Positions 3,951 through 58,229 of a DNA stretch of 64,000 nt are shown piece after piece. The stretch covers positions 248,001 to 312,000 of the forward strand of contig JAYWIR010000081.1 in assembly GCA_036172245.1 (NCBI GenBank). The letters run 5' to 3'. A program made the translations under genes and the position numbers. The stretch comes from Raillietiella orientalis. Lineage: Eukaryota. How positions within the stretch are numbered: position 1 is the stretch's first letter; every line of letters begins with the position of its first letter. The notes beneath the pieces are model-generated. The model did not search any database and had not been told where the DNA came from. It worked only from the letters and a program-made list of their open reading frames with translations.

Positions 3951-4560
3951 GTCGACACACGTCTGAAGATTTCGTGGCCGCCGCAGTGACTTCTGCGTAG
4001 GATTGGGACTTTGCCGATTTCCGAAGGGACAGCGGGTTAGAGCTGAAAGTATTCGCCCGGTGGCGATCTTCCTGCTCTCCTACCTTTCCTACTGAAAGTC
4101 TTCGGAAATTTTTTGGTTCCTGGCTTGAAGAAGTGCTTCCGAGTACGGCAGCGAGGACGGGCACGGCACGCGTCGCGCCCTCGCGTCCCTTTGGATTTGG
4201 CTTCTTCGCCGCGATTTCTCCCTTTTGGAACGTTGCGGGCGGGGACGCCTTTTGTAAAGCCGCGTATTGCTTAGCTTTATTGCAAAGACTCCGCGGAAAC
4301 TGTTTTTTTTTGGAGGCAGCGGCCTTTCGTGCGTTAATCTCTTGAACGCGACGAACTTCCGCTGCTGCCCTTTTCTTTTACAGGATCGGGCACTTTTTTA
4401 TTTCGTGCCAGGTTTCTTTACAATAGCAGCATTCCGGAGTGGGATATTGCTTCTTCCCGTGTCCCTCCTTGCCTCACTGCTTCTACGCGCGAGTCTGTTC
4501 TATAATCCACAGGCTCCTTTCCTCCGCTTCTTGCTTTTTGTTTGCCCCTTCTGAGCGGAG
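3946..4560 (-). pseudogene. Possible ORF1 low-complexity fragment of another retroelement
   Basis: Lys/Ser-rich translation including SYAEV, typical of LINE ORF1 disordered regions; no diagnostic domain. Confidence 0.3.
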
Positions 4561-5945: not shown

Positions 5946-6333
5946 GAGGTTTACTTGAAAAAATAAACGTCTTCACGAACCGAATTTAAATGAAGGCTCT
6001 GGAGAGTGACGCCTCTCATTGATTCGAGAAGGTGTTTCTTCGCACCTAAGAGTCGCGTCCAGTCCCCCGGCGGACGCCACACCCTGCATGGCGGTACCTT
6101 GTCGCGAGGAGGTATCTCGAAAATTAGCCGGGAATGGTCCGACACCGTCGACGCAACCTTCCCCCGTTTACCGACCCGCGAACACGGGTCGGCGTCGAGA
6201 AACGCGTGGTCGATGCTGAGGACTATTCCCCTCTCACCCGCGAACAAGTTGCGCGCACGCATAACGGCGCACAACTCGTTCATCGAGTCCTATTCTGTTT
6301 CTGGCTCACCTGTTAGCAGGCGGAGATTGAAAT

Positions 6334-9300: not shown

Positions 9301-11515
9301 GTCTCGAAAACGTGCGGGCCTGCAGAAAGTCTCTACTGTTGGCCACGCCCTCTCGGAAACCGCGTGGAAGCCGGTGCAAGGGGAATTGGCAACAGAACTC
9401 GCGGACAGATCTTTTGAGATCGTCCCAGTCTACAAGTTCTTGAATGGCAAAGCCTCGGAGGTATCCACGTAGATGCTCCGCAGCCTCCGGTTGGCTAAGC
9501 CAATCCGCCTGCATCCTTCAGTTTTGCAACGGAGGCCCCCTGCCTGGAGGAAGGTTCTCAAACTCCAACCTGTGGTGGTCAGAAAGCTCAGTCAACAATC
9601 TTCCTCTCCTACCCACACGCGAATGCAGGTTTTCATCGAGGAAAACGTGATCGAGCGAACTTACCATTCCAGGTTCGCTGACCATCAAGTTGGCGGCGTG
9701 CACGGACGCGCACATCTCGATGGGCAGCGCGCGCTCCCTCGGGCGGCTCCAATCGTCGGAGAGCAGGCGGACGTTGAAGTCCCCAGCGACGAGGTGCGCC
9801 ACTTGGAAACCGGAGTTGTTGAGCCAGTGGCTCTGCACCTCACCAAAGAAAGCTACTCTTTCTTCGAGGTAGCGAGAGCCACTCGGCGCGTAGACGTTCG
9901 TAACGACGAGATCGATGGACTCGGACCACTTGATGACAAGCTGGCCTATCCGTCCGTCGTCATCGAAACGAACACTACGCACCGCTTCCGCCATTTTTCC
10001 TCTTACTAGGAACGCGACGGCGCACGTGTGTGCGCCGCCGCACCGCCAATGTAGCGTTCCGCCTGCGCGCTCCTCGATTTCGGCTGCCTGCTCGTCGGAG
10101 ATTACGTGAATCTCCTGCAGCAGCGCGAGGTCGAAGAAGCGCGGGGCGTTGGCTACTAATCGCCTCTTCTCGTCGTTCTGCAGACCGTTCACGTTTTAAC
10201 ACGTTACGGACAGACGACGAGAGGACGCGATTCCCCGCATTACTGCTGGGAAGGTGGCGGCTTTTTGCTCGCTTTATCTGGCGAGCAGACGGCGAGCAGC
10301 ACGACTGGCTGGAGGGGACGGTCGCCACCGTCCTCTGTCGTGCTGCATGCATGTAATGCCTCCACGCCAGGCTTATCCCCGTCGGGTTTCGTGGAGACTT
10401 CGCGTGGCTTCGCGGCTACAGTTTCCTGGCTGCCTACTTTTGATCGGCGCGCACACGCTTTCGAGCGAGTTGTCCTCGTCTCGGTGATCGGAACGGCATC
10501 CATTTCGGAGTTTGACCGGCGCATGTTCGATCGGGTTTCGGCCTTCCGCGAAGCAGTGACAGGTTCTGCTGGATTGACAGCTGTCCTGTTTTCGTTTTCT
10601 GGCACCAGAGCATCGCTTTTGGTGACGGCTGCTTTCCCGGCGCGCGCGTTTTCAGCGTGCTCACGCGCAGTTGCACGAGGGACCTTTGCTGAAGTCTTCT
10701 TTACTTCATTACGGTTCCTCATTTCGCGTGGCGCCGTAAATGGAGATTGTGCTCCATGGCCATCTTTGAAGCCATCCGCGTCTTTGGACGTGAGCACTTT
10801 GGATGGCTTCGACACGCTCGTCAGGGACACGGCCTTCGAAAGGGCTTTTCATCCCTTCGTTGGCATGGCATCCGTGGCAGTCGAGAGCTTGCTCTCCGAA
10901 TGCGACGGCGTGAGATTTGAGCTCATGGACTGTGGCGAATTTCGCCAACGCGTTCCGAATATCAGTATCGGAGATTTCCGACTCGATGTCGAAAATCTTC
11001 ACCACAAATGAGTCGTCCATGGCGGTCGGGAAGACCTTCTGGCCACGGATCGACAACGGGGTGCGCAGCAAGCGTTGCACAAGTGCCGCGTCTTTGCAAC
11101 GCACCTTGAAATAGCCCATGTCTTTTACGGGCATAATGGCGAGAAGGTCCTCCTCCCGCACGCCAACACGGGTCAGTTCATCGTTGAACTGATTCCCGTC
11201 GCGCGCAGAAAGAAAACCACTCACCTTATATCGGAGAGCAGGTCTATAGCCTTGGGCTACGTATGCCCGCAACTCCGACTCGTCGAGTGGTTTCCCTCTG
11301 ACGGCTGCTGTGGCAGCAACGTGAGCAAAACTCCTCTCCATTGGCGAGAAAGACGAAGTGGAGGCGGCCGTCGGTTCTGCAATTGCAGATCCGGATGCTG
11401 TTCCTCCAACTTGAGTAGCTTCAAGTTGGGTCGACATCGTCATCAAAATGTACGACGCCAATATGAAGCGGATGAAAGCACGGAGACGAGAGCGAAGAAA
11501 AACACGTCCGCACTC
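6334..11515 (-). mobile_element. Tx1-type element, family B, both ends present; ORF1 internally deleted, ORF2 with stops
   Basis: Flanked by direct repeat GATTGAAAT (6325-6333 and 11516-11524). 5' end matches the copy starting at 54336. ORF2 10240->6647 has WNVNG-like, LQEIH, GDFN, SDH, DLHKAFD, RQGDSLSP, FADD, KYLG motifs. Lacks about 0.73 kb of ORF1 (zinc knuckles) relative to the 54336 copy. Confidence 0.93.
6647..10240 (-). pseudogene. ORF2 (APE endonuclease + reverse transcriptase) of family B, interrupted by in-frame stops
   Basis: ORF pieces 9518-10192, 9002-9514 and 6647-8950 are in one frame; ATG at 10238-10240 overlaps the ORF1 TAA. Confidence 0.9.
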
Positions 11516-13945
11516 GATTGAAATCTCCCGCTATCAGGTGATCCTTTCGCACGTTGCTGTCCGCCAGCCAGTCGAGCTTCATGGTTTCCAGCAACCTGGT
11601 GCAGTCGCAGTACCCCTGTTTGCCGCTGGGGCCATACACATTTGTGACGATTTGGTCGATCGAGTCGGAACAGCTGAGAATCAGCTGACCGATCCGACCG
11701 TCGTCATCAAACCGCACGCTTTTTACGGCAGCGCCGATGGCTGGCTTCACGAAGAACGCGACCCCGCAGGTGTTGCGGCAGCCGCATTGCCGGTACAGCC
11801 GACCCCCCGCGATCGTCTCGATCTCCTGGGCGTCTGCCGCGGTGATCACGTGGATCTCCTGCAGCAGGGCCAGGTCGTGCTCACGCATGGTTTCGGCCGT
11901 ATCTCGCCTGTTGCTGTCGTCGCGCAGTCCGTTGACGTTCCAACAGGCCGCGCGAATCCGACGGCGCCTGGCGAGCCCAGGTGTTAGTCCTGGGAATACG
12001 GCGATGCGGCGTCTGCCACCTGCTGGGGCGGGTCGCTAGGTGGAAGGGAAGGGGGGAGAGGTACTGAAGGCACCTGTTCCTCCTCCTCCATCGGTGCCGG
12101 CGCGTCGGCAGAATCAACCGCAGGTGGAATCGCGCCAACCTGTTCGTCCTCCTCCATGGATTAAGGCTGCTCAGGTTTTGCGACAGCAGGAAGGACTTCA
12201 CCCCCCTGCTAACCCTTCTCCATGGGGGTGGCCGACTCGACGGCTTCCGGGCGTGGGAGTTTCCCCTCCAAGTTTCCCACGCTGCCGCTACCTTCTTGGT
12301 TCTCTTCCTCGCTGGTGGAGGGGAGGCGCCTCCTGGGTTTCTGGGACTTGCGACCCGACTTCTTGGGGGGTGCCTCAGAGAAAAAGAATGCGCTTCCGTC
12401 ACCCAGGTCGCACTCACCTGCGGGGGGCTTTTTCGTCGGAGCCAGCCTGCGTACGCCCTTGCGCAACGGGGTTTCGCGCTCGGCGAGCGTTGCTGCGAGC
12501 TCCTCCGTCGCTTTCTCGAAGGCCGCGTCTTCGACAGCGGCAACCGTTGCCGTGGGCTGCTCCGCGACCTTAACGAGCGCGGCGTCCTCGCTGACGGCGA
12601 ACGTTGCCTCGGGCTCCTCCGAGACTTTATCGAGCGCGGCGTCATGGCTGTCTGCGCGCCAGTCTCGCGTTTCACCCTCTAAACGTTAATTGGTCTCGTC
12701 CTCGCGTGTATCCTTCGCGTCCGCATCAGCTGTTTCGTGAACATTGCCGCGGGCGTCCTCGGCAGGAACGGCTAAGCGTTCCAATGCCAGCGAGCATTCG
12801 CAAAGTTGTTTTTTTGTAAGCAGCGCGGCTTTTTTCTTTTTGCCGGCATTTATCTTCTCCGACTTTTCTTCTGCCATCACTTTCTCTTTTTCTTTTCCGG
12901 CCTGATCAGCTGCTAACCCTCCTTTAATCTCACGTCCACGGGAGCTCTTTCTTCCGACGCCTGTACTGGAGGCTGGCAGTTGGGAACGGCCATTTTCGCG
13001 AACTGATCTTTCTATCAGCTTTCCACGTTTTGTCTGCGCCTTTATGACGGCAGGGGGCACCGGGGTGGGGCGCTTGGGGCAAACGCGCCGAACGTGACCG
13101 TTTTCCTCGCATAGTTGGCACACAATGTTCGGGCACCTTTTCCGTAGACGCCCTACTGCATTGCAGTAGCCACAAAATTGGGGTTTGCCCACGTACCAGA
13201 GGTCCACCGCTTCTTGGCAGAGCTCCAGCTTGGGGTGAAGAGCACCACCCTCTTTTACGGAAATACGCACCGCAGCTTGACCTCCGAAAAGGCTATTGTA
13301 GCCTTGGAAAATCGTGGGATTCCGCCACAACGCGTGCACTTCTACGTGCTTTCGCAACTGATCACCAACCGCTGACCTAGTCATGCGACTGGAGATCCCA
13401 GTGAGATGGACCACCACCGAGCGGTCCATCGTCACCGGCAAGATCTTTCGACCATCAACGATCAGCGGGTCGGTGATCAGGCGTTCGGCCAAGGCGATAT
13501 CTTTGCATACCACCTCGACCCGCTGCCTGCCGCTGAGGACGGAGAGGCCGTCAAGATCTTGTTCGAAAATGTTGGCGTGCTGCAGCGCCATCGTAATGGC
13601 GCGTGCAGTTCGCCCATCGAAAAGGTTGCCTACTTTCTAGACTACCGAGGGTTTATACCCCGCTTCGTTGTAGTCTTCCATCTCGGCCATGGCTTCCACG
13701 CTAGGCGCGGCCTCCATGGCGCTCGATGACCTAGACGTCGCCGGGGATGATTCCGGGGCGGATGCCCCTTATCCAGTGGGCTGTGGGGGCAGACAAGCCT
13801 CCTTCACGCCTACTTCCATCGCATTGTCCTCTGGCAACGCTGCCATCGTACACCGACGATGTGCACGCACAAACCACTCAAGGAAAAAGCACTCGCCTTG
13901 CCACGCAGGCGGAGCGCAGGAAAAGCACGTTCTCTCTCCACAAAG

Positions 13946-14570
13946 GGGATTTGGTGCGCAACGAAAGGGCGTATTTGCACGCCCGTCGTTTCGCAAGGAC
14001 TTCTGACGTCCGTCGTTTGGCGGAATACCAAGCCTACGCCGAGCGTCAAGCATGGCAAACCGGACCGCCCAGCGTGCTGGACAATTTGGATCAGGAACAC
14101 TCGAAGCCGGCTTCGATACGTCGCCTCGTGCGCGGATTTTACTTTCCTCTTTAAGCAATTGCACCTGCGTAGTGGTACGCTTCGCGGCGCCTGCTTCCAG
14201 ATGGAGCCCAGGCCAAAGATGAGGAGGAGAAAGAAAGCTTCCGCGAGCCTTTTACGACCGGGGAAATCGTCACCGCGATTAAAAGGCTTAAAGGCGCCAG
14301 GGGAGGACGGCCTGCCAGCATAGTTCTTTTAGTGCTTCGTCGCAGAGCTGACCCCCCTGGTGCTTAAATTGACATCGCTGATTTGAGACCAAGACGAGGT
14401 TCCTTCCTCGTTTCGGCCAGTCAGGGTGAGGCTCCTTCCTGAGGGAGGAGACCCCAGGAAATTAAGCAACTGGCGTCCGATCACGATAGTGAACACGTAC
14501 GCCAAGCTGCTGGCCGGACTGTGGGCTGCGCGACTGGGACAGGTAGCTGACAGCTTCGTCAGCACAAATC
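13946..14570 (+). pseudogene. Tx1-type ORF2 fragment (linker to early RT); host of the A' 5' end
   Basis: VRNERAYLHARRFARTSDVRRLAEY...KAPGEDGLPA...NWRPITIVN. Confidence 0.85.
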
Positions 14571-14845
14571 CTTCAAAGGGACTCGGGGTTTCCCTTTGCC
14601 CCAAAGTTCTATACGTAGGAAGTCCTTCGTCCGCTTTTTAGATTCCACCGGGCGGGGCAAACAAAAAGCAAGGGGCGCAGGATGGGGGCAGCGAAGGCGT
14701 TCCAAACCGCGGTTCGTTCTGGCAAATGAAACCTGCCTTCCAGGAACGGACCGATTGCCGTCTAAACTTTTTGGAGGCAGCTAGACAACGCTCCCGCAAT
14801 GGAGAAGTTTCTTAACGGCACAGCGAGGTACTTGAAGCACTTCAA
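14570..14845 (-). pseudogene. Short Tx1-type ORF2 fragment (KYL motif and downstream)
   Basis: Reverse strand reads KCFKYLAVPL... and aligns by eye with 20530-20790. Confidence 0.75.
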
Positions 14846-15680
14846 GGCTGGCGGCGAAGGCTTGAGGAACGATCAGAACTATCTCCACTCCCGGAGATTC
14901 TCCAACAAGCCCGACGTCCGTCGCCTGGCGGAGTTCAAGGCTGGAGCTGAGAGGCAGGCCCGGAAATCCAAGTTTGCCTGATTACTGGACGAAGAAGGCC
15001 AGGAGCACTCATCTCCAGCGCAGGTTTGCCGCATTCTGCGGGATTTCTATTCCTCCCTTCACGCGCTGAGACCACCAGTGAGCTTCTCTGCCCAGCGCCT
15101 GCTGCCAGAGGGTGCTCCCGCGTTGAGGGAGGAAGAAATAAACATCTTCTTCCAGGAGTTCACGATAGCGGAGATAATCTCCGCCATCACTAAATTGAGA
15201 AAAAACAAAGCACCAGGGGAAGACGGCCTGCCAGCTGAATTCTACCGACACTTCGTTGCAGAGTTGGCTCCTCTGATGCTCAAATTGTGTTTGCTGATCC
15301 GTGAACGCGGGGATGTCCCCAGCTCGTTCCGTTCAGCTAGAGTACGTCTACTCCCCAAGGGAGGAGACTTGCGAAACGTTAGCAACTGGCGCCCCATCAC
15401 TGTGGTGAATGCGGATGCAGAGTTGCTCGCCAAACTCTAGAGTGAGCGTCTGAAACGGGTAGCGGAATCCGTGGTCAGTCCGGAACAGAGTTACGCTGTT
15501 CCCGGAACAACCATGGAGGCCAACTTGTTCCTCGCCAGCACAATTTGGAAGTTGCAACAGCGCGAGGCTCGGCTAGGTCGGAAGAGTCCTGGACTGTTCG
15601 CTGACCGGGAAGAGGAAAGCCGGGGGAAGGATGCGGCGCTTGGAGCTCTTGCGGTCGCAGTCGACTTGCACAAAGCATTC
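14846..15680 (+). pseudogene. Tx1-type ORF2 fragment from the GEG-RN linker to RT motif DLHKAF, cut there by an antisense element
   Basis: GGEGLRNDQNYLHSRRF...KAPGEDGLPAEFY...NWRPITVVN...AVAVDLHKAF. Confidence 0.88.
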
Positions 15681-16530
15681 AATTTTCACCCGGATTTCTC
15701 CGGGTCGTTCATTAAAAAATAAACTTTATGTTGAAAGTATTTATGGCTGTGGAATAGCTCCAGCCAGTAGCGAAGAACCACGAAGCTTGCCAATTCACCG
15801 GTCTCTGGATAGGCACAGTCCACCAAGGCATCAGGGGGAAGGGGAAAAACAAAAAAACTAAACAAAAAGAAACAAAGGGTGATAGGGAACGGGAAGGGAT
15901 CACTGATGCTGCTGAGGCCGCATCATCCCTCTCAGAATGCAGGCAAGCTCTTGTTTGTTGTGAACATCCAGGTGGGGCCATCGCGACGCCCTCCTCAGGA
16001 ATTCGGAGGCGCACTGGATGGCTTCCTGATCGCGACGTCCTCCCGTCGCCGTACTCCAGGCGGCGACGATCCAACGAAGGCAGAAAAAGGCTGCTATCGA
16101 GGACGCAGGCCGCAGAGCGTCGGCAGCGAAGAAGACTTTTAGTGCGTCCCTGGGGTTGCTGCAAGGGATACCGATGGCCGCGGCAAATCGGAACCAAAGG
16201 GGCCGAAGGGCAACACAATCCACTAGGAGGTAGGGGAGGGATTCCCGTTCCCCGCACCTTACACAATTGGGATCCACCGCTCCCCAGGTCCAGTGGTGGC
16301 GATGGGAGTCGCAGGGACTCCCCTATGCTGCAACAGGAATGCCGACTCTAGCCATTTTAAGGGAAGAGTGAAAGTGTTCATAAGAACCGGAGGCCACTTC
16401 CGATGTTGAATCGGAACATCGAGCAGCGCTCTCCAGCGCAGAAGTCCATTGGGAGGCGAATTCGGGGGCGCAGCATGAGTTAGCTGACCCGTCTTCCACT
16501 CTCTCTGCTTCTTCTCCTTCCCGGAGATTT
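15681..16530 (-). mobile_element. 3' fragment of a Tx1-type element (possibly family F) with complete 3' UTR and terminal hairpin
   Basis: LPLKWLESAFLL...CVRCGERESLPYLLVDC, stop at 15900, terminal CCCGGA-GAAA-TCCGGG (15689-15704). Confidence 0.85.
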
Positions 16531-16534
16531 TTAT

Positions 16535-19155
16535 TCGCGAAGGTGTTCCTTCGCACCTGATAGTCGCGTTTAGTCATCTGGCAGACTCTAATTTCTGGAT
16601 GGCGGTCCTTTGTCGCGAGGCCGCATCTTGAAAATTAACCTGGAATGGTCCGACAACGTCGACGCAACCCTACCCCGTTTGCCGACCCGTGAACACAGGT
16701 CAGCGTCGACGAAGACGTGGTCGATGCTGAGGACCATTCCCCTCTCACCTGCGAACAAGTTGCGCGCACGCATGGCGGCGCACAACTCGTTCATCGCGTT
16801 CTCTTGTGTTTCTGGCTCACCTGTTAGCAGGCGGAGATTGAAATCTACCGCTATCAGGTGAGCCTTTCGCACGTTCGTGTTCGCCAGCCAGTCGCGCTTC
16901 AGGGATTTCAGCAGCATGGTACGGTCGCTGTATCCCTGTTTACCGCTTAGGGCGTACACATTCGTAACGATCAGTTCGATCGAGTCGGACCAGCTGAGAA
17001 TCAGCTGACCGACCCGACCGTCGCCATCGAAGCGCACGCATTTCAAGGCAGCGTCGATGGCCGGCTTCACGAAGAACGCGACCCCGCAGGTGTTGCGGAG
17101 GCCTCACCGCCAATACAACGGACCCCCCGCGATCGTCTCGATCTCCTGAGCGTCTGCCGCAGTGATCACGTGGATCTCCTGCAGCAGGGCCAGGTCGAGC
17201 TCACGCAGGGTGTCGGCCGTATCTCGCCTGTTACCGTCGCCGCGCAGCCCGTTGACGTTCCAACAGGCGGCGCGAATCCGACGGCGACTGGCGAGCCCAG
17301 GTGTTACTCCTGGGAAGATGGCAGTGCGGCGTCCGCCACCTGCTGGGGCGGAACGCTAGGTGGAGGAGGGGGGTCAGGTGCTGAAGGCACCTGGTCCCCC
17401 TCCACCAACGGTGCCGGCGCGTCGGCCGGATCACCCGCAGGTGGAGTCGCGCCTACCTGTTCGCCCTCCTCCATGGGGGCGGGCTGTTCAGGGTGGGCGC
17501 CTGCAGGGGGGACTTAACCCCCTGTTCACCCTCTTCCATGGGGGTGGCCGGCTCGACGGCTTCCGAGCGTGGGAGTTCCCCCTCCGGGATTCCCACGCTA
17601 CCGCTACCTTCCTGCTTCTCCTCCTCGCTGGTGGAGGGGAGGCGCTTCCTGGGTTTCTGGGACTTGCGTCTCGAATTCCTGGGGGGTGCCTCCGAGGAGG
17701 AGGATGCACTTCCGGCCTCCATGTCCGACTCACCTGTATGGGCCTTATTCGCGAGAGCCGGCCTTCGCACGGCCTTGCAAGAGGGGTTCCCACGCTCGGC
17801 CAGCGTGGCCGCGAGGTCCTCCGCCGCCTGAGCGAACGCGACGTCCTCGGCTTCGACCGTCGCTATTTCGCGCGGCTCACCCTCTGTGTAAACAGAGGGT
17901 TCGCCGTCGCGAACCTCGGGCGCGGCGCAAACGGCGAGGAAAGGCTCGTCGCCCCAGGTGGCAATCTCGGGAACGGCTATGCGCTCCAGTGTTACGGTAC
18001 ACTCGCGCATGGTCTTTGAGCGCGGCCCAGGTTTTTTCGCCTTGCCGGCTGTCTTTTTTACCGCTTTCGCGGGTTCCGCGTGGGGCACCTTTTTCTCCTT
18101 CCTGGCCTTGACCAGCTGCCAGCCGTCTTGGACTCCCGCTTCTTCGGAGGGTTTTTCTTCCGACGCCTGTGTGGGAGGAGAAGGGGCTAGCGGCTGCTGC
18201 CGGCCAGTATCTCTTTTTGGTCTTTCGACTAGTTTACCGCGTTTTGCCTGTGCTTTCTTTGCAGCAGGCGGCACCGGAGTGGGGCGTTTAGGGTATACGC
18301 GGCGTACGTGGCCCCTCTCCCCGCATAAGTGGCACACAATGTTCGGGCACCGCTTGCGCAAGTGTCCTACTGCATTGCAGTAGCCACAAAAGCGGGGTTT
18401 CCCCACGTACCAGAGGTCTACGACTTCGCCATTGACCTCTAGTTTGTGGGGAAGCCCACTCTCCTTCACCGTCACGCGCGCGGCGGCCTGCCCTCCGAAA
18501 AGGCTATCGTAGCCATCGAAGATTGTGGCCTTTGGCCAAAGCGCGTGAACATCTCCGTACTTTCTTAACTGATCACCAACCGCAGACCGCGTCATGCGGC
18601 TGGTGATCCCTGTCAGATGGACCACTACGGAGCGGTCCATCGTGACTGGGAGGATCTTGCGTCCGTCCACGTTCAGCGGGGTGGTTATCAAGCTTTGCGC
18701 CAAGGTGATGTCCTTGCAGACAACCTCAACGCGCTGACCCCCGCTTAGCACGGATAGACCGTCAAGGTCCTTTTCCAACACGTTGGCGTTCTGCAGCGCT
18801 TTCGAAAAAGCGCGTGCAGTTCGCCCGTCAAAGAGATTGCCTACCTGGTAAACCAAGCTGGGCTTGTACCCAGCTGCCCGGTAGGCCGCCATCTCGGCCT
18901 TGGTTTCCGCGCTCGGCGCGGCTACCATGGCGCTCCAGCTCCTCGCTTTGAGCGGCGAGGGCGATTCCGGGGCGGACGCCCCTGATTCTGTAGGCTGTGG
19001 AGGTGGGCAAGCCTCCCCCACACCTACCTCTATCGTGATGTCCTCAGGCATCGCTGCCATCGGACACCAACGATGTTCCACACTAAACAACACAACAAAA
19101 AACCGCTTCCTGTCGACTCACTCGGGAGCGAAGGAAACACACGTCCACTCGCCAA
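16535..19155 (-). mobile_element. Family A copy 2 (5' UTR, ORF1 with late frameshift, endonuclease domain), 3'-truncated; in tandem with copy 1
   Basis: Nearly identical to 22190-24815; ORFs 17453-19093 and 16588-17070. Confidence 0.92.
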
Positions 19156-19371
19156 GGGATTCGGCGTTGCCACCCGGGTACGCCCGGGGCGTTTATTGAT
19201 AAACTTTACATGCGTGGTACAAGGCCCCACCACGGCCGTAAACACAGGACCTGTCGGGACACCGGGACGCAGCCCGGCGTGGCACTCCCCGACAGCGAAG
19301 GGGGATGGGGATGAGACAAAAAGTAAAATAAAAAGAAACAAACAAAAAGAAGTTGGAGGGCAGGGAAGGGA

Positions 19372-22300
19372 TCACTGGTCGCTGTGGGGAGGGCCCATCC
19401 GTCGAACGAAGCCCTCGAGGTCAGCCTGCATATTCCCCAGTTGGGGCCATCCGGCAGCTCTTCGCAAGAAGCGTTTGGCATACGGGATGACATCCCTCGC
19501 CTGTGGACCCACTCCTTCGTTGTTGGCGTCGCTCCATGCCGCCACGATGCCACGGACGCAGCACAAGGCTGCGATGGCCGCGGCTGGCTGCAGTGCGTCC
19601 TTCACGAAGAGGGGCCGAAGAACGTCTCTGGGGGTGCTGCCCGTAGGGAGCCCGAGGGTCGTCCCGAACCGTTCCCAAAGGGGTCGGAGGGCAGCATAAT
19701 CCACAATAAGGTGGGGAAGCGACTCCCGCTCCCCGCACCTGGCACACGCAGGATCCACAGCTCCCCTCGTCCAGTGGAAGCGGCGCGCGTTGCAGGGTAG
19801 ACCCCAGTGCAACAAAAGCAACGCCGACTCTTGCCACTTCAGGGGCAGGATCCTGGATTTACTCAATGCCGCGGGCCACTTCAGCTCATCCCTGGGGATG
19901 GCGAGCAGCTCGCCCCATCTTAACAATCCTCGCGGCTGGACGCTCGGGGTCGAGGCGTCGGCCAGTTCTCCTGTTGTCCAGCCGCTGATCAACTTCTCCC
20001 GTCCCTCGATGCAGCAGGAGACTTGCCACCTTGGCGTCCGGGTGCTGTGAAGTGCCCTCCTTAGGACGGGTAGCGCCGTAGCTAGGCAGGTCGTCTCTGC
20101 CCACGTGCATCTTGCTGGACTCTCCAGGAGATTCCGCAGCGTGCAGCGGGCGTAGGGGCTGCATCGGAGACGATTCCACGTCTCGTGGCTTCTCTGGTTG
20201 ACTACTGCCCACGTTCCAATATTCTCCTCCAGCCAGGCGGGGGAGTTGGCGGGGCAGCAAACCATCCAGCTGTTCTCCTTGGCCAATGTTGCCATGCGCC
20301 CGAGCAGTAGGCCGCATCTTCGCATCTTCCGGCCACGGCTCAGAAGAAAAGACGCGAGTCCATCGCACCGGGACACACGGCTGGCCAGGAGGCGGGCCTG
20401 AGTGCACCAATGGGTGCTCCACATCTTCGCTGCGATGGCGAGGGTTCGCCACCGCAGCTGCTTTTCCACGCGCTCCAGCGTCAGGAGGCCAAGACCGCCG
20501 TCCCGACGCGGAGCGCACAAGTCCTTCAGTGGGACTCGGGGCCTCCCCTTGCCCCAAAGGGCGATACGGAGGAGGTCCTTCGTCCTCTTCTTCGATTCCA
20601 CGGTGGGGGGGCAAACAAAAAGCAAGGGGCGGAGGATGGGGGCCGCGAAGGCGTTCCAAACCGCGGCCCGTTCCGGCAAGTGAAACTTGCCTTCCAGGAA
20701 CGGGCCGATCGCCGTCTCGACTTTTTGGAGGCAGCTGGACCACGCTTCCGCAGGGGAGTAGTCCCCCAACGGCACACCAAGGTACTTGAAGCACCTCGCC
20801 GTGGGGATCCCCAGACGGACCCAGTCCTGCTGCCCTGCCCACGCCGCAACTATTGGCACAACCGACGACTTCGCCCTGTTAACCTGCAGTCCGGTCCCGC
20901 GGCTGAGCAGATCGAAGAAGTCTCCGACCGCCTTTGCCGGGGTGGACATTGGCAACAAAAGCAGAAGATCGTCGGCGTACGCTGCTACGGCGGGCGTGCC
21001 GGGGCACGAGCTCGGCAATGGGGCCAAAGTCACCCTGGACGCTCTCAGCACCAACTCAAAGTAGGTGCTGAAGAGCAGGGGGCTGAGGCTATCTCCCTGC
21101 CTTATGCCCCGCCGCACCGGCACGCCATACACCTTTGACCGCTGAAAGAGACGGTAATTATCGCATTCCGCCAGCAAGAGCGCAGGTAGGAAATCAGGGA
21201 GGGTGGAAAGCCCATGCGACCCAGGAGCTCCAAGAGAAGTTCCTGGTCTACACAGTCGAACGCCTTGTGGAGATCGACTGCGAGCGCTAGGGCCCCCTTC
21301 CCCGCCCGGGGGTCCCTTCCCAGCCCGGCTGGCGGCCCCAATGTGGGGTTGCCGACTTTCCCTATCCCTTTCTTCTCTCTTCTCTGTAGGTGCACCCATG
21401 TGCTTGCGAAGAAGAGGTTGGCATCCATACTTCGCCCGGGAACAGCATAAGTCTGCTCCGGGCTAATTACGGATTCTGCCACCTGCCCCAGACGCGAAGC
21501 CCATAGCCCTGCGATCAACTTGGCGTCCGTATTCACGATCGTGATCGGACGCCAGTTCTTTAAATCCCTGAGGTCCCCCCTTTCGGCAGGAGCCTCACTC
21601 TGGCTGACCGAAACGAGGCGGGAACATCGCCTTCGTCTCGGATCAGCCTGATCAACTTAAGCAGCAGGGGTGCCAGCTCTTCCGCGAAGCTCTGAAAGAA
21701 CTCCGCGGGCAAGCCGTCTTCCCCTGGAGCTTTACGCCTTTTGAGCCTTTTGATACCGGCGAGAATTTCGCCGGTGGTAAAAGGCTCGTCGAGGCTTTCC
21801 ATCTCCTCCTCCCCTATTGCCGGGGCGCCATCCGGAAGCAAGCGCCGAGAGGCGTTTCGATCCGGGGGCTGCCTGGCGTAAAGGGAGGAATAGAAACTCC
21901 GCACGAGATGCCGTATTGACGCCGGGGACGAACATTCCCGGCCCTGGTCGTCCCGCAAGCTGGCCGACCCGGATTGCCAGGCTTGGCGTTCGGCCCCGGC
22001 GCGGTACTCGGCCAGGCGACGGACATTAGGGGTTCTCTCGTACCTACGAGCCTGTAAATAGGCCCGATGGTTACGAGCACCCTCGCCGAATCCGGGGGGC
22101 AGGCGATCCAGGGGGAACTGCTCACAGAACTCGCGGACCGATTCCTTAAAAAGGTCCCAGTCCTGGAGATTCCGGAGCGTGACACCTCTCAGGTATTCAC
22201 GAAGGTATTCCTTCGCACCTGAGAGTCGCGTCCAGTCCCCCGGCAGACGCCAATCCCTGGATGGCGGTCCCTTGTCACGAGGCCGCATCTCGAAAATTAA

Positions 22301-22965
22301 CCGGGAATGGTCCGACAATGTCGACGCAACCCTCCCCCGTTTGCCGACCCGTGAACACAGGTCAGCGTCGAGGAAGACGTGGTCGATGCTGCGGACCATT
22401 CCCCTCTCACCCGCGAACAAGTTGCGCGCACGCATAGCGGCGCACAACTCGTTCATCGCGTTCTCTTGTGTTTCTGGCTCACCTGTTAGCAGACGGAGAT
22501 TGAAATCTCCCGCTATCAGGTGAGCCTTCCGCACGTTCGTGTCCGCCAGCCAGTCGCGCTTCAGGCAATCCAGCAGCCTGGTACGGTCGCTGTATCCCTG
22601 TTTACCGCTGGGGGCGTACACATTCGTGACGATCAATTCGATCGAGTCGGACCAGCTGAGAATCAGCTGACCGACCCGACCGTCGTCATCGAAGCGCACG
22701 CCCTTCACGGTTGCGTCGATGGCCGGCTTCACGAAGAACGCGACCCCGCAGGTGTTGCGGAGGCCGCACCGCCAATACAGCCGACCCCCCGCGATCGTCT
22801 CGATCTCCTGGGCGTCTGCCGCGGTGATCACGTGGATCTCCTGCAGCAGGGCGAGGTCAAGCTCACGCAGGGTGTCGGCCGTATCTCGCCTGTTACCGTC
22901 GTCGCGCAGCCCGTTGACGTTCCAACAGGCGGCGCGAATCCGACGGCGACTGGCGAGCCCAGGTG
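19372..22965 (-). pseudogene. ORF2 (APE-RT-zinc finger) of family A with two frameshifts
   Basis: Pieces 21560-22831, 21102-21536, 19372-21399; GDFN, SDH, DLHKAFD, YADD, KYLG, CARCGERESLPHL. Confidence 0.92.
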
Positions 22966-24720
22966 TTATTCCTGGGAAGATGGCGATGCGGCGTCCGCCA
23001 CCCGTTGGGGCGGGACGCTAGGTGGAGGAGGAGGGTCAGGCGCTGCGTGCACCTGGTCCCCCTCCTCCATGGGTAACGGCGCGTCGAGGGGGTCACCCTT
23101 AGGTGGGGTCGCGCCTACGTGTTGGCCCTCCTCCATGGGGGCGGGCTGTTCAGGCTCGGCGACTGCAGGGAGGACTTCGCCCCCCTGCTCACCCTCCTCC
23201 ATGGCGGTGGCCGGCTCGACGGCTTCCGAGCGTGGGAGTTCCCCCTCCGGGATTCCCACGCCACCGCTACCTTCCTGCTTCTCCTCCTCGCTGGTGGAGG
23301 GGAGGCGCCTCCTGGGTTTCTGGGACTTGCGTCCCGACTTCCTGGGGGGTGCCTCCGAGGAGGAGGATGCACTTCCGGCCCCCAGGTCCGACTCACCTGT
23401 GGGGGCCTTTTTCGCGGGAGCCGGCCTTCGCACGGCCTTGGGTGAGGGGTTCTCACGCTCCGCCAGCGTGGCCGCGAGCTCCTCCGCCGCCTTTGCGAAC
23501 GCGGCGTCCTCGGTGTCGACCGGCGCGTCGCGCGGCTCACCCTCTGTGTAAACAGAGGGTTCGCCGTCGCGAACCTCGGGCGCGGCGGAAACGGCGAGGG
23601 AAGGCTCGTCGCCCCGGGTGGCAATCTCGGGAACGGCTATGCGCTCCAGTGCTACCGTACACTCCCGCATGGTCTTAGAGCGCGGCCCAGGTTTTTTCGC
23701 CTTGCCGGCTGTCTTTTTTACTGCTTTTGCGGGTTCCGCGGGGGGCACCTTTTTCTCCTTCCTGGCCTTGACCAGCTGCCAGCCGTCTTGGACTCCCGCG
23801 TCTTCGGAGGGTTTTTCTTCCGACGCCTGTGTGAGAGGAACAGGGGCTAGCTGCTTCTGCCGGCCAGTATCTCTTTTTGGTCTTTCGACCAGTTTACTGC
23901 GTTTTGCCTGTGCTTTTTTTGCAGCAGGCGGCACCGGAGTGGGGCGTTTAGGGCATACGCGGCGTACGTGGCCCTTCTCCCCGCATAAGTGGCACACAAT
24001 GTTCGGGCACCGCTTGCGCAAGTGTCCTACTGCATTGCAGTAGCCACAAAAGCGGGGTTTCCCCACGTACCAGAGGTCTACGACTTCTTCATTGACCTCT
24101 AGTTTGTGGGGAAGCCCACTCTCCTTCACCGTCACGCGCGCGGCGGCCTGCCCTCCGAAAAGGCTATCGTAGCCATCGAAGATTGTGGCCTTTGGCCATA
24201 GCGCGTGAACATCTCCATATTTTCTTAACTGATCACCAACCGCAGACCGCGTCATACGGCTGGTGATCCCTGTCAGATGGACCACTACGGAGCGGTCCAT
24301 CGTGACTGGTAGGATCTTGCGTCCGTCCACGTTCAGCGGGGTGGTTATCAAGCTTTGCGCCAAGGTGATGTCCTTGCAGACAACCTCAACGCGCTGACCC
24401 CCGCTTAGCACGGATAGACCGTCAAGGTCCTTTTCCAATACGTTGGCGTTCTGCAGCGCTTTCGAAAAGACGCGTGCAGTTCGCCCGTCAAAGAGATTGC
24501 CTACCTGGTAAACCAAGCTGGGCTTGTACCCAGCTGCCCGGTAGGCCGCCATCTCGGCCATGGTTTCCGCGCTCGGCGCGGCCACCATGGCGCTCCAGCT
24601 CCTCGCCTTGAGCGGCGAGGGCGATTCCGGGGCGGACGCCCCTGATTCTGTAGGCTGTGGGGGTGGGCAAGCCTCCCCCACACCTACCTCCATCGTGGTG
24701 TCCTCAGGCATCGCTGCCAT
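22966..24720 (-). CDS. ORF1 protein of family A (nucleic-acid chaperone with two CCHC zinc knuckles and acidic disordered tail)
   Basis: Open frame from MAAMPEDTT; CGYCNAVGHLRKRC and CHLCGEKGHVRRVC; C-terminal MEEG(E/Q/D) repeats. Confidence 0.9.
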   Translation of the reverse strand: MAAMPEDTTMEVGVGEACPPPQPTESGASAPESPSPLKARSWSAMVAAPSAETMAEMAAYRAAGYKPSLVYQVGNLFDGRTARVFSKALQNANVLEKDLDGLSVLSGGQRVEVVCKDITLAQSLITTPLNVDGRKILPVTMDRSVVVHLTGITSRMTRSAVGDQLRKYGDVHALWPKATIFDGYDSLFGGQAAARVTVKESGLPHKLEVNEEVVDLWYVGKPRFCGYCNAVGHLRKRCPNIVCHLCGEKGHVRRVCPKRPTPVPPAAKKAQAKRSKLVERPKRDTGRQKQLAPVPLTQASEEKPSEDAGVQDGWQLVKARKEKKVPPAEPAKAVKKTAGKAKKPGPRSKTMRECTVALERIAVPEIATRGDEPSLAVSAAPEVRDGEPSVYTEGEPRDAPVDTEDAAFAKAAEELAATLAERENPSPKAVRRPAPAKKAPTGESDLGAGSASSSSEAPPRKSGRKSQKPRRRLPSTSEEEKQEGSGGVGIPEGELPRSEAVEPATAMEEGEQGGEVLPAVAEPEQPAPMEEGQHVGATPPKGDPLDAPLPMEEGDQVHAAPDPPPPPSVPPQRVADAASPSSQE

Positions 24721-24815
24721 CGGACACCAACGATGTTCCACACCAAACAGCACAAGAAAAAACCGCTTCCTGTCGACTCACTCGGGAGCGAAGGAAACAC
24801 ACGTCCACTCGCCAA

Positions 24816-27800
24816 GGGATTCGGCGGAGGGCTGAGGAACGACCGGGCATACCAGCACGCTCATCTTTACCCTAGGACTCATGACGTTCGACGCCTGGCG
24901 GAGTATACAGCTGGGGCTGAGCGACAGACCTGGCGATCCGGGTCGGCCAGCTTGCTGGACTTCCAAGGCCAGGAATGCTCAGCTCCGGCGAAAATAAACC
25001 GCATCCTGCAAGAGTATTACTCCTCCTCGTACGCGGGTAGAACAACAGAGCGCGCCGTTGCGTAGCGCTTGCTGCTGCAAGGCGCCTTCGCGCTACAGGA
25101 GGAGCAGAAGCATGAACTTGAGGAGCCATTCCCGATGGCGGTGATCATCTCCGCCATCGGAAAGCTCAGAAAGAGGAAAGCACCAGAAGAACACGGTCTG
25201 CCCGCGGAGATCTATCGAGGCTTCGTGGCAAAGCCGGCCTTCTTAATGCATCGGCTTTGCATGCTGATCCGAGAACAAGGGGACGTCCCCAAATCGTTCC
25301 GGTCAGCTAGAGTACGTCTCCTGCAGAAAAACGGAGACAATCGCAACGTAGGCAACTGGCGTCGCATTACAGTAGTGAATGCGGATGCGAAATTGCTTGC
25401 CAAGATTTTAGCTGAGCGACTCGGACGTGTGGCGGAATCCGTGGTGAGACCGAAGCCGACATACGCTGTTTCCGGACGAAGCATGGAAGGCAACCTGTTC
25501 CTTGCCAGTACATGTTGGCAGTTGCAACAAAGCGAAGACCAGGGAGATCATGAGAATCCTGAATTCTGCTCTGACCAGGGAGGGTTCGCCATTCATGGAA
25601 GAGCCGCGCCCGGTGCCCTTGCGGTCGCAGTCCATCTGCGCAAAGGTTCGATTGCGTCGAAAAGCAACTCCTTGTGGAGCTCCAGAAACGCTCGGGATTT
25701 CCGGCCATCTTCCGGGATTACCTGCGCTCCTGCTGGCGCTTCGCTCTAATAAACATCTCTTCTAGGGCCGGCACGTGTACGCCCTGCCGGTTCGGCGTGG
25801 CATAAGGCAGGCTGACAGTCTGAACCCCTTGCTCTTGAGCATCTACTTAGAGCTGGTGTTGAGGGCACACAAGCAGACTTTTGCAACCCTGCCAGGCTCG
25901 TGTCCCGGCACGCCTGCCGTGTCGGCCTACGCCGACGACCTTCTGCTCCTGCTCCCCGGGTCCACCACGGAGTCGGCGCTCGAAGATTTCTTTGAGTTGC
26001 TGCGCCGCGGGACGGGCCTCGAGGTGAACAGAGAGAAATCCACAATCGTTCCTACATCACCACTGCTTTGTGAATACACGGCGTGGGCCGGAAGGTCGGA
26101 CTCGAATCGCTTGGGGATCCCCACGGGCCGGTGCTTCAAGTACCTCGGCGTTCCGTTTGGGGACTTCTGCGTTGCAGAAGCCTGGTCCGACCATCTCCAA
26201 AAGGTGGAGTTGGCGTTCGGCCGGTTCCAGAACTGCAAGTTTTACTTGCAGGAACGGGCCGCGGTGTGGAACGTGTTCGCGGCCCCCCTCCTTCGCCCCT
26301 TACTTTTTGTTTGCTTCGCTCCTCTCTTCATACAGAGACGGACCAAAGCCCACTTGAGGGCTGCCATTTCGAACACAGCGTGGTCGCGAGACCGATTGAA
26401 ACACTTGTGCGCTCCACGCAGGGATGGTGGCTTGGGCCTTCTTACGTTGGAGCGCATCCAACTTCAAACACGAATTCGAAAGTTAGCCCTTGCGGCTAGC
26501 TTATGGATGACGCCATTGTGGGATCCGGCACGGCTCCTCGCCAGAAGAGCGACCGGCTGCGAAGGATTGTCCTTGATCTTCGTGGCCTACCAGCGCAGTC
26601 TCTCCAACTGTGGCACTTATTCGCGCCAAATTGTGGCACTTATTCGCGCCAAATGGTCGCCCTGATGTGGGAGAATACCTGGATCTCCTGCCTTCCCGCG
26701 AACTGCACTGCCTGGCTTCAGGAGTCAGCATCCGCGTGGGCGAAGATGAACAGCACGAGCAAGGCGGAATGCAACTGCCTACGACGAGGAACTTACGTTC
26801 GACAGCCGCTGCAGGATATTATCAACACGCCCCGGAAGTTTCTGTGGGCTTCTTTCAACCCCCTTGCTCCCGTTCTGTCCTCCCTAAAAAGCACTAGGAG
26901 CAGCAACCAGCGGGCATAGTGGGAAGTGTCCTGCCTAATCCGAGGCAGGAAAAAACCTTTAAAGGCGTGAACGACTGGGGAGCTAACGGACGCTGCCATT
27001 CCGAGCGTCCCGCCTCACGGACTTGCGCGCTGAAGAGAGCTGCTCGCAATACCTCCGGAGGAGGTGAAGTGGTCCCCAGCGTTTTGGGATTGCGGCACAC
27101 TTCCGTTGAAGTGGCAGGAGACGGCGTTGCTATTTCTGCACTGGAGACTGTGAAGCAGAGCACGCCTTTCTTAATGGACACTGTGGAATGTGGATGCTCG
27201 CTCTGTGGAGTGCGGTGAAAGAGAAACCTTCCCGCATCTCACCCTCGAGTGTGTCGTCCTGGATGGACTCTGGATTCGAATCGCCCCAATCCTTCATCTT
27301 CCAGTAGGCGACCATAAGGACATTTATCGTCGCCTCTTTCTGCGTGACGGTCTGCGCTCCGCTGCGTCTCAAGCAGTCCTCTGCTGCGTGCGCGGGATTG
27401 CGCAAAGGTGGCACGCAAGAAGAAGAGGCTCAAGATGCATGGACGCCATCCAATGGACGGCGATGTCTTTAGAGACGGCGACAAGGTGGCGTGTACCTTT
27501 CACAATAAAAACCGAACTTGACTGCATCCTCAACAGGATGCGAAGGAACGAACCAGGTGCACAGTGATCCCTTTTCTACCCTCCACCTCCCCATAGAACA
27601 GTTTCTCTCCCCGTTATTCTCTTTTTTGTTTTTTGTTTTCCCTTTCCTCTTTCCCAGCGCCTGGGTAGGGAACCTCGCCGGTCTGGAGACTGAGTAGCGA
27701 GTACATTGTAGCGTGGGACAACTCAGTGTTGCTCCACAGAAAACATTTTTTAAAGTCTTTATGATCTAATTTTTGTAACAAATTAGAATAATAAATGCCC

Positions 27801-27819
27801 CGGCATATCCGTGTGACAA
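24816..27819 (+). mobile_element. Element X (possibly family C): decayed ORF2 from the GFG linker to the 3' end; host of the family A array
   Basis: GFGGGLRNDRAY..., YADD, KYLG, CGERETFPHL; stop 27567; terminal AATAAATGCCCCGGCATATCCG; 23-bp tandem duplication at 26609-26654 causes a frameshift. Confidence 0.9.
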
Positions 27820-27831
27820 ACGGCGGAGGCA

Positions 27832-28450
27832 ATTGTTGTGCGCTCCGTGGATAGGAAGTTATTGGTTTGGTGTTTCGTGTGTTTGTCGCGGCCGTTGACA
27901 GGCAGAAATGCCTGTGAATTCCGCAGATTTAGGTAAGGGAGGCGGGAAGACCGTGTCTCCCAAGCCAAAGGAGGTGGGATCACGCCCCACCACTACTTCT
28001 GAACCTTACCTTGCCACTACGGAAAGGGTTTTAAGCGCGGTGGTAGCAGCGAAAACGCCCAATGTCGCCGCCGAAATACAATCCTACATCCAAAAGGGCT
28101 ACAATCCGGCCCTCCTGTACAAGGTAGGAAATTTATATTCCCCGTTGAAGGCGCGAAAGTTCGGCAATGCCATCAAAAAGATGGGCATTGCCGACCATGA
28201 AATTCTTTGCCTGTCAATACAAAGCGGAGGGTAGTTGGCGGAACTCAACTGCAAGGATGCAGCTCTCACCCACAAACTGCTCTGCACGCCCGTACAATTT
28301 GAGGGCAGGAATTTACTTTCCCACACGGTGGACCACTCCATTGTGGTTCACCTTCTCGGGACAACAGTTCGGATGGATGAGAACGCCATCCGCGCTGAGC
28401 TTGAAAAATTCGCAAGGGTTTTCGCAATGTGGCGAAAGCCCAACACCTTC
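27832..28450 (+). mobile_element. Family C copy 2, 5' part of ORF1, interrupted by antisense element G
   Basis: MPVNSADLG... closely similar to 34356 onward; breaks after WRKPNTF. Confidence 0.9.
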
Positions 28451-34277: not shown

Positions 34278-35489
34278 CTTGTTGCGCGCTCCTTGGATAG
34301 GGAGTTTTTCTTTCCTGGTGTTCCGTGTGTGTTTCGCGGCCGTTGACAGGCAGAAATGCCTGTGAACGCCGCAGTTTCAGGTGAGGGAGGCGGGAAGACC
34401 GCGTCTCAAAAGCCAAAGGAGGTGGGATCACGCCCCACCACTTCTTCTGAACCCGCCACTACGGCGAGGGCCTGGAGCGCGGTGGCAGCGGCGGAAACGC
34501 CCGATGTCGCCGCCGAAATTCAATCCTACATCCAGGAGGGCTACAATCCGGCCCTCCTGTACAAGGTAGGCAATTTATATTCCCCGTTAAGGGCGAGAAA
34601 GTTCGGCAATGCCATCAAAAAGATGGGCATTGCCGACCATGAAATTCTTTGCCTCTCTATACGGAGCGGAGGGCAGTTGGCGGAGCTCATCTGCAAGGAT
34701 GCAGCTCTTACCCACAAGATGCTCTGCACGCCCGTACAATTTGAGGGCAGGAATTTACTCCCACACACGCTGGACCACTCCACTGTGGTCCACCTAACAG
34801 GGACAACAGTGCGGATGGATGAGAACGCCATCCGCGTGGAACTGGAAAAATACGCAAGCGTTTTCGCGATGTGGAGAAAGTCCAACACTTTCGGAGTGAA
34901 TGGTGCATTTAGTGGGCGAGTAGGCGCGCGCGTGACGCTTCGAGAAAAAGTACAGCTTCCCCACAAGCTCCAAATTGGCGACGAGTTCGTCGACATTTGG
35001 TTTGCGGGGAAACCTAAATTTTGTGGAAACTGTAAGTCGTTCGGGCATTTGAAAAAACGGTGCCCGGACGCGGTTTGCCCAACGTGCGGCGCGAAGGGCC
35101 ACACCAAAGTGGTGTGCCCGATGAACGTCGCTCCAACGCCGGAACTTCCGCAAAAGAAGGCAGGGAAGGCAAAAATAGTAATAAACCCCACAAAAGGGGA
35201 TCAACCGTCGGCTCCGACAAAAGTCGCGCAGCAGGAAAGGGACTCGGTAAAGGAGCTCCCGGAAAAGACTGCCGACGAGGAAGGCTGGCAGCTGGTCACC
35301 CGTAAAGTAAAAATCGTTAAAAAAACCGCGCCCGCACCGGCGAAAGTGGTGAAGGGCAAGGGGAAGGTCGCGCCATACCCAACAATCAAAGCGTGCAGCG
35401 TGGCCATCAAACGCGTGCCGGCGATCGATACTCGCTCCGCTGACGGATCGATGCGTTGTGACGTCACGCCAGCTGTTCAACCCGCCGCC
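34278..35489 (+). mobile_element. Family C copy 1: 5' UTR and open ORF1 (from 34356), truncated by the family D array
   Basis: CGNCKSFGHLKKRC and CPTCGAKGHTKVVC; frame ends at VQPAA where the D 5' end begins. Confidence 0.92.
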
Positions 35490-35580
35490 TGAGAGGGTGG
35501 ACGAGCTTTTGTGGTGCTCCGCGTTTTTCTCGCGAGTGTTTTCGGTGTTTTCAGCTGTGAGCGGTTGTTCCTGGGCAGAG

Positions 35581-41067: not shown

Positions 41068-41093
41068 GTGAACAACCCGCCGCCTGAGAGGGT

Positions 41094-56425: not shown

Positions 56426-56450
56426 TCGGGCAGTCTGCTTTTTAGAATCC

Positions 56451-58210: not shown

Positions 58211-58229
58211 AAGTCGTTGTGGAGGGAAC

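Follow-up and report, generated by a model that had tools for sequence, protein, structure and literature searches.

How a mobile element comes to lie, at full length and in reverse, inside the coding sequence of another element of a similar kind is the question raised by a 64-kb stretch of DNA from Raillietiella orientalis (GCA_036172245.1, contig JAYWIR010000081.1, positions 248,001 to 312,000 of the forward strand), which is referred to as the window in the following and to whose positions 1 to 64,000 all of our counts apply. Here, a long interspersed nuclear element (LINE) of a lineage that we call family A abuts the second open reading frame (ORF2) of a different LINE, precisely at the codons for a Gly-Phe-Gly (GFG) motif in the linker between endonuclease and reverse transcriptase (RT), and a further A copy lies on its other side. 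An initial annotation of the window had suggested that family A targets these codons in antisense and that the two copies form a head-to-tail tandem, as expected for re-insertion into a target duplication. Our analysis leads to a closely related reading, to which we assign a probability of roughly 0.7: family A inserts site-specifically and in antisense into the GFG codons between endonuclease and RT in the ORF2 of other LINEs, and 11 bp of the target, hereafter the 11-mer, are duplicated in the process.

To describe the locus, we number ORF2 residues after an intact plus-strand copy at 37256-40810 (1185 codons). The parts of the first A copy, A1, were mapped by a stop-to-stop scan and by tblastn against this intact ORF2. 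The central features are the following:

24816 to 24826, plus strand: right copy of the 11-mer, GGGATTCGGCG, which in the frame of host 1 runs from the third base of a Pro codon through the Gly-Phe-Gly codons to the first base of the codon after them
24816 to 27822, plus strand: host 1, a different LINE of which the right half is present, with ORF2 residues 289-1185, the 3' untranslated region (UTR) and a terminal hairpin
19167 to 24815, minus strand: A1, a full-length family A LINE of 5649 bp, with 5' UTR, ORF1, ORF2 and 3' UTR
19167 to 19190, minus strand: 3'-terminal hairpin of A1, CCCGGG-cgua-CCCGGG and then UGGCAA, as a predicted fold and without poly(A)
19156 to 19166, plus strand: middle copy of the 11-mer, between the 3' end of A1 and the 5' end of A2
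16532 to 19155, minus strand: A2, the older A copy, 94.3% identical to A1 positions 3028-5649

The 11-mer has just two exact copies in the window, at 19156-19166 and 24816-24826. Three other matches carry one mismatch each, and one of them represents A1's own GFG codons (22084-22094, minus strand). By our own arithmetic, about 0.03 exact copies would be expected by chance in 64 kb on both strands; two of them, exactly at both ends of one element, are far beyond chance. On the right, the plus strand reads KGFGGGLRNDRAYQH from 24816 and then matches residues 289-1185 of the intact relative, the 11-mer running in frame into the ORF2 of host 1 (GFGGGLRNDRAY). Intact copies have PPGFGEG(V/A)RN(E/H)RAY at this place, on the plus strand at 38147, 45027 and 49382, and on the minus strand in A1 itself at 22075. 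Since nucleotide identity between host 1 and A1 is only 68%, host 1 is not an inversion of A itself. We also considered twin priming and rejected it on this ground, as the inverted partner belongs to a different family.

By its sequence, family A classifies as an L1-like LINE with an apurinic/apyrimidinic (AP)-type endonuclease, a reverse transcriptase and an ORF1 with a CCHC knuckle. In A1, ORF1 (22966-24777) is open over 603 codons, lies upstream of and separate from ORF2, and contains a zf-CCHC knuckle above the Pfam cut-off (E 5e-5). ORF2 (19396-22960) is broken by two frame shifts into the frames 22960-21575, 21578-21135 and 21147-19396, of which the first, with the endonuclease, is open. 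The Pfam domain Exo_endo_phos is detected with E 2e-13 in A1 and 1e-14 in the intact relative, and RVT_1 with E 6.5e-9 and 1e-22, respectively; zf-RVT reaches 22.7 bits in the intact relative, against a Pfam cut-off of 27.5, and yields no score in the C-terminal piece of A1. In protein searches with the intact ORF2, the nearest relatives are at most 28% identical, and its best solved relative is human LINE-1 ORF2p (E 4.6e-46). Because the aligned stretches in this comparison are query residues 10-183 for the endonuclease and the region from residue 339 for the RT, the GFG site (residues 289-297, LPPGFGEGV) is located between the two domains.

The ends of A1 resemble those of its neighbors. The A 5' end reads TTGGCGAGTGGACGTG, and the 5' UTR of A1 contains the box GTGGACGTG; a box G[TC]GGACGTG near the 5' end is common to all lineages in the window. 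A terminal hairpin of the A1 kind is predicted at five of the five element 3' ends that we folded, and 3' ends of the form CCCGG(G)-N4-6-(C)CCGGG followed by TG..AA are found across all lineages (19167, 41072, 6334, 28458, 15686, 27822, 31550 and 47927), none of them with poly(A). Since the stem sequence is invariant, covariation is not available as an argument for this fold.

The second copy, A2, has the same orientation as A1, and its 5' end is separated from the 3' end of A1 by the 11-mer alone; the order in sense direction is A1 - 11-mer - A2. One and the same 11-mer separates A1 from A2 on one side and from host 1 on the other, and the array sits at the normal target site, with the host in frame. 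A2 retains only the 5' UTR, ORF1 and endonuclease residues 3-256, its ORF1 being frame-shifted and a Cys of its zinc knuckle changed to Tyr. Where its 3' half should be, C1, an element of an unrelated lineage, lies with a truncated 5' end (15686-16531). With this half lost, the downstream end of the array shows no further 11-mer with the other half of the target in the window; absent through loss, this end neither confirms nor excludes an array of the type known from R1 elements. The initial annotation had described the anatomy accurately: the 11-mer stands on both sides of A copy 1, is in frame with the host ORF2 on the right and on the left separates the 3' hairpin of copy 1 from the 5' end of copy 2, the two copies forming a head-to-tail tandem.

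This site was hit more than once. Further to the left, the following features belong to two additional A-lineage copies and their hosts:

11516 to 13944, minus strand: right part of A3, a diverged A-lineage copy, with 5' UTR, ORF1 and endonuclease
5998 to 6333, minus strand: left part of A3, split from the right part by an F-lineage insertion (6334-11515)
13946 to 14563, plus strand: host 2, ORF2 residues 294-502, starting with GGGATTTGGTG, its homologue of the 11-mer
14562 to 14845, minus strand: Ax, a 5'-truncated A-lineage fragment with RT residues 714-817
14846 to 15685, plus strand: host 3, ORF2 residues 294-570, beginning with GGCTGGCGGCG|AAGGCTTGAGGAAC (..AGGEGLRN)

A3 shares 75-85% identity with A1 and no more than 68% with the next-best family, and Ax is 85.5% identical to A1 and 75% to the next-best family. 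All four A-lineage copies (A1, A2, A3 and Ax) have the GFG-site sequence on their 5' side: three of them abut a plus-strand host ORF2 that starts at residues 289-294, and A2 abuts the 11-mer and then A1. At each of the three host-bearing junctions, the host starts within the same 11 bases, in one case with an 8-bp gap, and A is always in antisense. Eight ORF2 copies in the window cover the GFG region; three are occupied by the A lineage, and the unoccupied, intact ones are those of B1, B3, B', A1 and F. The F linker (9350-9380, minus strand) reads LPRGFREGV, and in its site, CGGTTTCCGAG, 4 of 11 positions deviate from the A target, which may be an escape from A.

Pairwise identity among the three hosts is 64-71%, i.e. 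they have diverged by 29-36%, and the A copies are 79-94% identical, corresponding to a divergence of only 6-21%. The three junctions are therefore independent events, and for the same reason we rejected the possibility that one old junction was copied by segmental duplication. By a rough estimate of our own, two more breakpoints in a 3.5-kb gene would come to lie no more than about 20 bases from the first with a probability of ~3e-5. Moreover, Ax lacks a 5' end of its own, so homology to the A 5' terminus cannot have guided its junction; it is the target and not the end of the element that determines the insertion site. In this one window, independent copies thus occupy the same position in the same orientation in independent targets, which is the mark of a target-specific LINE. 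With three different hosts broken at the GFG codons, the proposal that family A targets these codons in antisense is supported.

We then asked whether A1 and A2 arose in one event or in two. An alignment of A1, A2 and A3 over the 2.6 kb common to all three, with A3 as the outgroup and without the 16 sites at which all three differ, yields 50 private changes for A1 and 77 for A2 (binomial p 0.02). Codons were counted in the ORF1 and endonuclease frames if they were ungapped, had a single difference between A1 and A2 and could be polarized by A3 (n=101), leaving out the UTR, codons with multiple hits and unresolved codons. Synonymous changes number 25 on the A1 branch and 22 on the A2 branch, non-synonymous changes 14 and 37, and stop changes 0 and 3, respectively (Fisher p 0.0075). 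Judged by these substitutions, A1 appears to have been under purifying selection for part of its branch, as a working element, and the pattern in A2 looks like decay in place. A2 is the older copy, since its branch is longer and neutral-looking and that of A1 shorter and constrained, and the data support that the two are separate retrotranspositions of different age and not a DNA duplication. The younger copy, A1, lies upstream of A2 in sense direction. For R1, tandems are described as forming when a new copy enters the target-site duplication (TSD) that flanks a resident copy on its 5' side (PMC2718515), and the substitution pattern together with an age order that matches this rule lends support to the suggested re-insertion origin of the tandem.

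From this architecture we infer where the strands are cut, that the target is duplicated and that the specificity of the endonuclease is the cause. The A endonuclease would nick the sense strand of the host just after GGGATTCGGCG, and the nicked 3' end would prime reverse transcription of the A RNA, which ends in the conserved hairpin and not in poly(A). The second strand would be cut about 11 bp upstream, so that the new copy is flanked by the 11-mer at either end. As the 11-mer at the 5' end of the element would keep the whole downstream half of the target, it could be cut again. A2 would have come first, and after its insertion the 11-mer would still have stood next to the downstream half GAGGGCTGAGG.. 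of host 1; later, this 11-mer beside the A2 5' end would have received A1, giving A1 - 11-mer - A2 inside host 1. A nick after GGCG in it, combined with an 11-bp staggered second cut, would yield exactly the plus-strand order A2 - 11-mer - A1 - 11-mer - host 1.

The step in this scheme that invites the most serious objection is the duplication. The site specificity may be real and the 11-mer may nevertheless be a target-derived 5' leader, CGCCGAAUCCC, carried by the A RNA. Such a leader could stem from a transcription start in the flanking host or be a fixed part of the 5' UTR (CGCCGAATCCC ahead of the A 5' UTR), and the complementary DNA would anneal by its end to the GFG site once this is cut, a route that has been put forward for melanogaster-type R1 and for R2. 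In that case, the spacer that separates A1 from A2 would be the leader of A2. Target-derived 5' extensions are indeed described for SINEU-2B, R1 and R2 (PMC4494074, PMC2718515), and several observations in the window weigh against a duplication or against simple insertion as we propose it. None of the three host-bearing A events has kept the left host half, which would display the duplication. The single surviving A 3' junction (19167) abuts the 11-mer and A2, not host DNA, and A2, A3 and Ax have each lost their 3' part at junctions that simple insertion fails to explain. The 11-mer homologue in host 3, whose clear homology begins at CGGCG (14852), matches at only 7 of 11 positions. In host 2, 8 bp are missing directly after the 11-mer homologue, and the sequence resumes with CGCAACGAAAGG (RNERAY), a TG repeat leaving a 2-nucleotide ambiguity in position; this looks like an imprecise joining, and the gap is easier to explain if the 11-mer came with the A RNA. 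Finally, B1, B3 and B4 form a plus-strand head-to-tail tandem in which the same 13-nucleotide spacer, CAACCCGCCGCCT, precedes the 5' core of each copy (35478-35490, 41073-41085 and 52305-52317), including the copy beside an ORF1 flank. This spacer may be a duplication of the ORF1 of another element, N (VQPAA in frame), or a 5' leader.

Other evidence speaks against a leader. Two insertions of sister lineages have kept both host halves and show plain duplications of 8-9 bp without one: the F insertion in A3 (6334-11515) is flanked by the 9-bp duplication GATTGAAAT at 6325-6333 and 11516-11524, and B' (42297-47927), inserted in sense into the ORF1 of B3, by the 8-bp duplication GCAGTGAC (span 42289-47935), the uninterrupted B' target site being present in B1 at ~36690. 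In F, K and B', the 5' UTR starts 0-8 nucleotides ahead of the shared box; in A, it starts 7 nucleotides ahead of it without the 11-mer and 18 with it, so that A fits this spacing only if the 11-mer is not part of the element. The truncated Ax, which could not carry a leader, joins its host within the same 11 bases. The D/N family, by contrast, illustrates what an element-borne 5' end looks like, since its ACGGCGGAGG stands next to two unrelated flanks; no such case exists for A in the window. If insertion is site-specific, we therefore infer that the 11-mer is probably a true TSD and rate a leader as unlikely, and both leave the targeting of the GFG codons intact.

Two explanations that dispense with a second insertion or with targeting altogether fare worse. 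End-to-end template jumping is known for reverse transcriptases of elements without long terminal repeats (LTRs), and the tandem could stem from one integration in which the RT finished the A2 RNA and jumped to the 3' end of the A1 RNA without a second cut. Spacer-free head-to-tail joins do exist, given that host 1 and the element D form a mixed-family head-to-tail pair in which the 3' end of host 1 abuts the 5' end of D without a recognizable spacer. A template jump would, however, require the 11-mer to be a leader on the A2 RNA, the longer, neutral-looking A2 branch and the constrained A1 branch fit different insertion times better, and R1 arrays of the same architecture are explained by sequential insertion (PMC2718515); we regard it as very improbable. 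Marginally less credible still is that A has no target preference, the tandem being due to DNA duplication or unequal exchange, or the hosts being inserts that were themselves 5'-truncated at one codon. The region is heavily rearranged and several of its junctions join element-internal points, as this would have it, but a DNA duplication predicts equal neutral branches and not 25/14/0 versus 22/37/3 or 50 versus 77 changes. Likewise, truncation would have had to strike three hosts of three families within about 19 bases of each other in a 3.5-kb gene, with the small chance estimated above, and the divergence of the hosts far exceeds that of the A copies.

Some joints next to the A copies are of a different nature. 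At 16531/16532, A2 stops at endonuclease residue 256, where it meets C1 at its truncated 5' end; at 14562/14563, residue 502 of host 2 (plus strand) joins residue 817 of Ax (minus strand); and at 5997/5998, the 3' end of the element E abuts A3 residue 267, the remainder of A3 being absent beyond E. Such joints may have arisen by extensive deletion at a 5' junction, by template switching or by rearrangement at a later time.

Site-specific LINEs are known to target ribosomal DNA (rDNA), small nuclear RNA (snRNA), transfer RNA and spliced-leader genes, telomeric or microsatellite repeats and, in the Tx1 group, DNA transposons and LTR elements. Within this range, A is most readily compared with R1 from the 28S rDNA of arthropods. 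Each is a LINE that has an AP-type endonuclease and a single fixed target (PMC2718515, PMC5932611), and each has head-to-tail copies separated by a target piece of duplication length, which measures 11 bp in A and is given as 14 bp for ancestral R1 and 11-13 bp for R1B of D. ananassae (PMC2718515, PMC5932611). R1 cleavage is described as rigid on the first strand and flexible on the second (PMC2718515, PMC5932611). Unlike R1, A enters the coding sequence of other LINEs in antisense and not a multicopy RNA gene of the host, and its target duplication is a probable one, the left flank being lost. The likeness drawn here is one of architecture.

With the Tx1 clade, A shares the relationship to L1, the AP-type endonuclease and the targeting of another mobile element at a fixed position and orientation. 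Reported examples are Tx1L in Tx1D, Tx1-Mar in Mariner-N4_AMi, Tx1-8_Crp and Tx1-4_AMi in LTR retrotransposons, and Tx1-9_AMi in Harbinger (PMC4494074). The Tx1-dependent SINEU-3 also resembles A in that its tandem insertions sandwich the TSD, for which sequential insertion is given as the explanation (PMC4494074). As far as this source describes them, however, the Tx1 targets are DNA transposons and LTR elements with no coding motif singled out, whereas the A target is a coding motif of sibling LINEs.

At a larger scale, the window recalls the clusters formed by Zepp (Coccomyxa/'Chlorella') and ZeppL, which are likewise GC-rich (guanine- and cytosine-rich) islands of nested L1-type LINEs and are said to arise by nested insertion targeting existing copies (PMC3446292, PMC8226300). 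Zepp clusters are described as arrays of one family with mostly 3' ends, whereas in the window several lineages are present that each have a site of their own. Keyword searches in open-access text found neither a nucleotide-exact coding-motif site for Zepp or ZeppL nor any LINE that targets coding motifs of other LINEs, which is not proof of absence. Compared with the target classes named in PMC4494074 and PMC2718515, i.e. rDNA, snRNA genes, microsatellites, DNA transposons, LTR elements and Harbinger, the A target is different. Family A acts like a target-specific AP-endonuclease LINE and its tandem like an R1 array, with a new kind of target.

Several other lineages of the window meet their neighbors at coding motifs as well. 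The F lineage has two copies (6334-11515, minus strand, and 54335-56342, plus strand) that are 95-96% identical; each has entered a different host, in sense orientation and at the AGDFN codons of the endonuclease (11516 in A3 and 54335 in a B-type copy). Antisense junctions at the (H)KAFD codons of the RT occur in two hosts, formed by the 3' end of C1 (15686) in host 3 and by the 5' end of K (30356) in the A-like element G, whose own 3' end (28458) lies within an ORF1. In the B tandem, too, the upstream copy looks like the younger one: B1 has 34 counted changes on its branch without a stop, B3 has 60 with 3 stops, and the intact 1185-codon ORF2 is found in B1 only. The 5' end of B1 meets the ORF1 of N (35477/35478) 15 nucleotides further on than the B' site. 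The D/N 5' end, ACGGCGGA(G/C)G, is present at 27823-27832 and ~34265, and its two flanks are the 3' end of host 1 and, in antisense, the element M near ORF2 residue 365. We had considered CGGCGGAGG at 27824 as a second duplication of the GFG target and rejected it, as it belongs to this D/N 5' end.

The LINE island ends at ~56.4 kb, where the GC content drops from ~0.6 to 0.41-0.46 across 56400-64000. On the far side of this boundary, there is an RT fragment of unrelated type (~57.6-58.7 kb, minus strand), another one of the island type (60170-61099, minus strand) and a 51/102-bp tandem repeat (62004-62323).

We also looked for the locus outside of this assembly. A scan of public metagenomes with a 17-base pattern of the A 5' end returned 25 loci, none of them window-like (blastn E 1e-5), which are chance matches. 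A fraction of 0.53 of the sampled window words is present in one DNA sequencing run (X1) and next to none in two others (X2 and X3). Among the pieces listed from the X1 contigs (162 short pieces), none bridges 19156-19167 or 24815-24826, and these junctions are not among the loose ends listed; the run thus settles nothing about the flanks and is itself not independent of the assembly. A protein search with residues 1-60 of the open frame that spans the junction of A1 and host 1 gave no match.

Taken together with the junctions of the other lineages, the behavior of family A raises the tentative idea, whose odds we put a little below even, of a guild of sibling LINEs in which each endonuclease is specialized on a constrained codon motif of another: GFG for A, AGDFN for F and KAFD for C1 and K, in addition to sites in ORF1. 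If this were true, the victims could not easily mutate the motif and each new LINE copy would add targets, resulting in a self-renewing system that eliminates competitors while leaving host genes untouched, and from which islands of LINEs alone, with R1-like tandem arrays, are built. Coding-motif targeting, if real, would mean that the target is supplied by the element family itself, A included, that protein constraint shields it from escape and that a rival is put out of action with every hit. A set of closely related AP endonucleases that recognize different short sites would then be at hand, which is useful for studying how specificity changes. The A tandem shows the array-building rule of R1 in a setting other than rDNA. 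More broadly, this provides a testable account of islands that consist only of nested LINEs, such as the Zepp-type clusters described at algal centromeres, for which a guild of this kind would constitute a concrete molecular mechanism.

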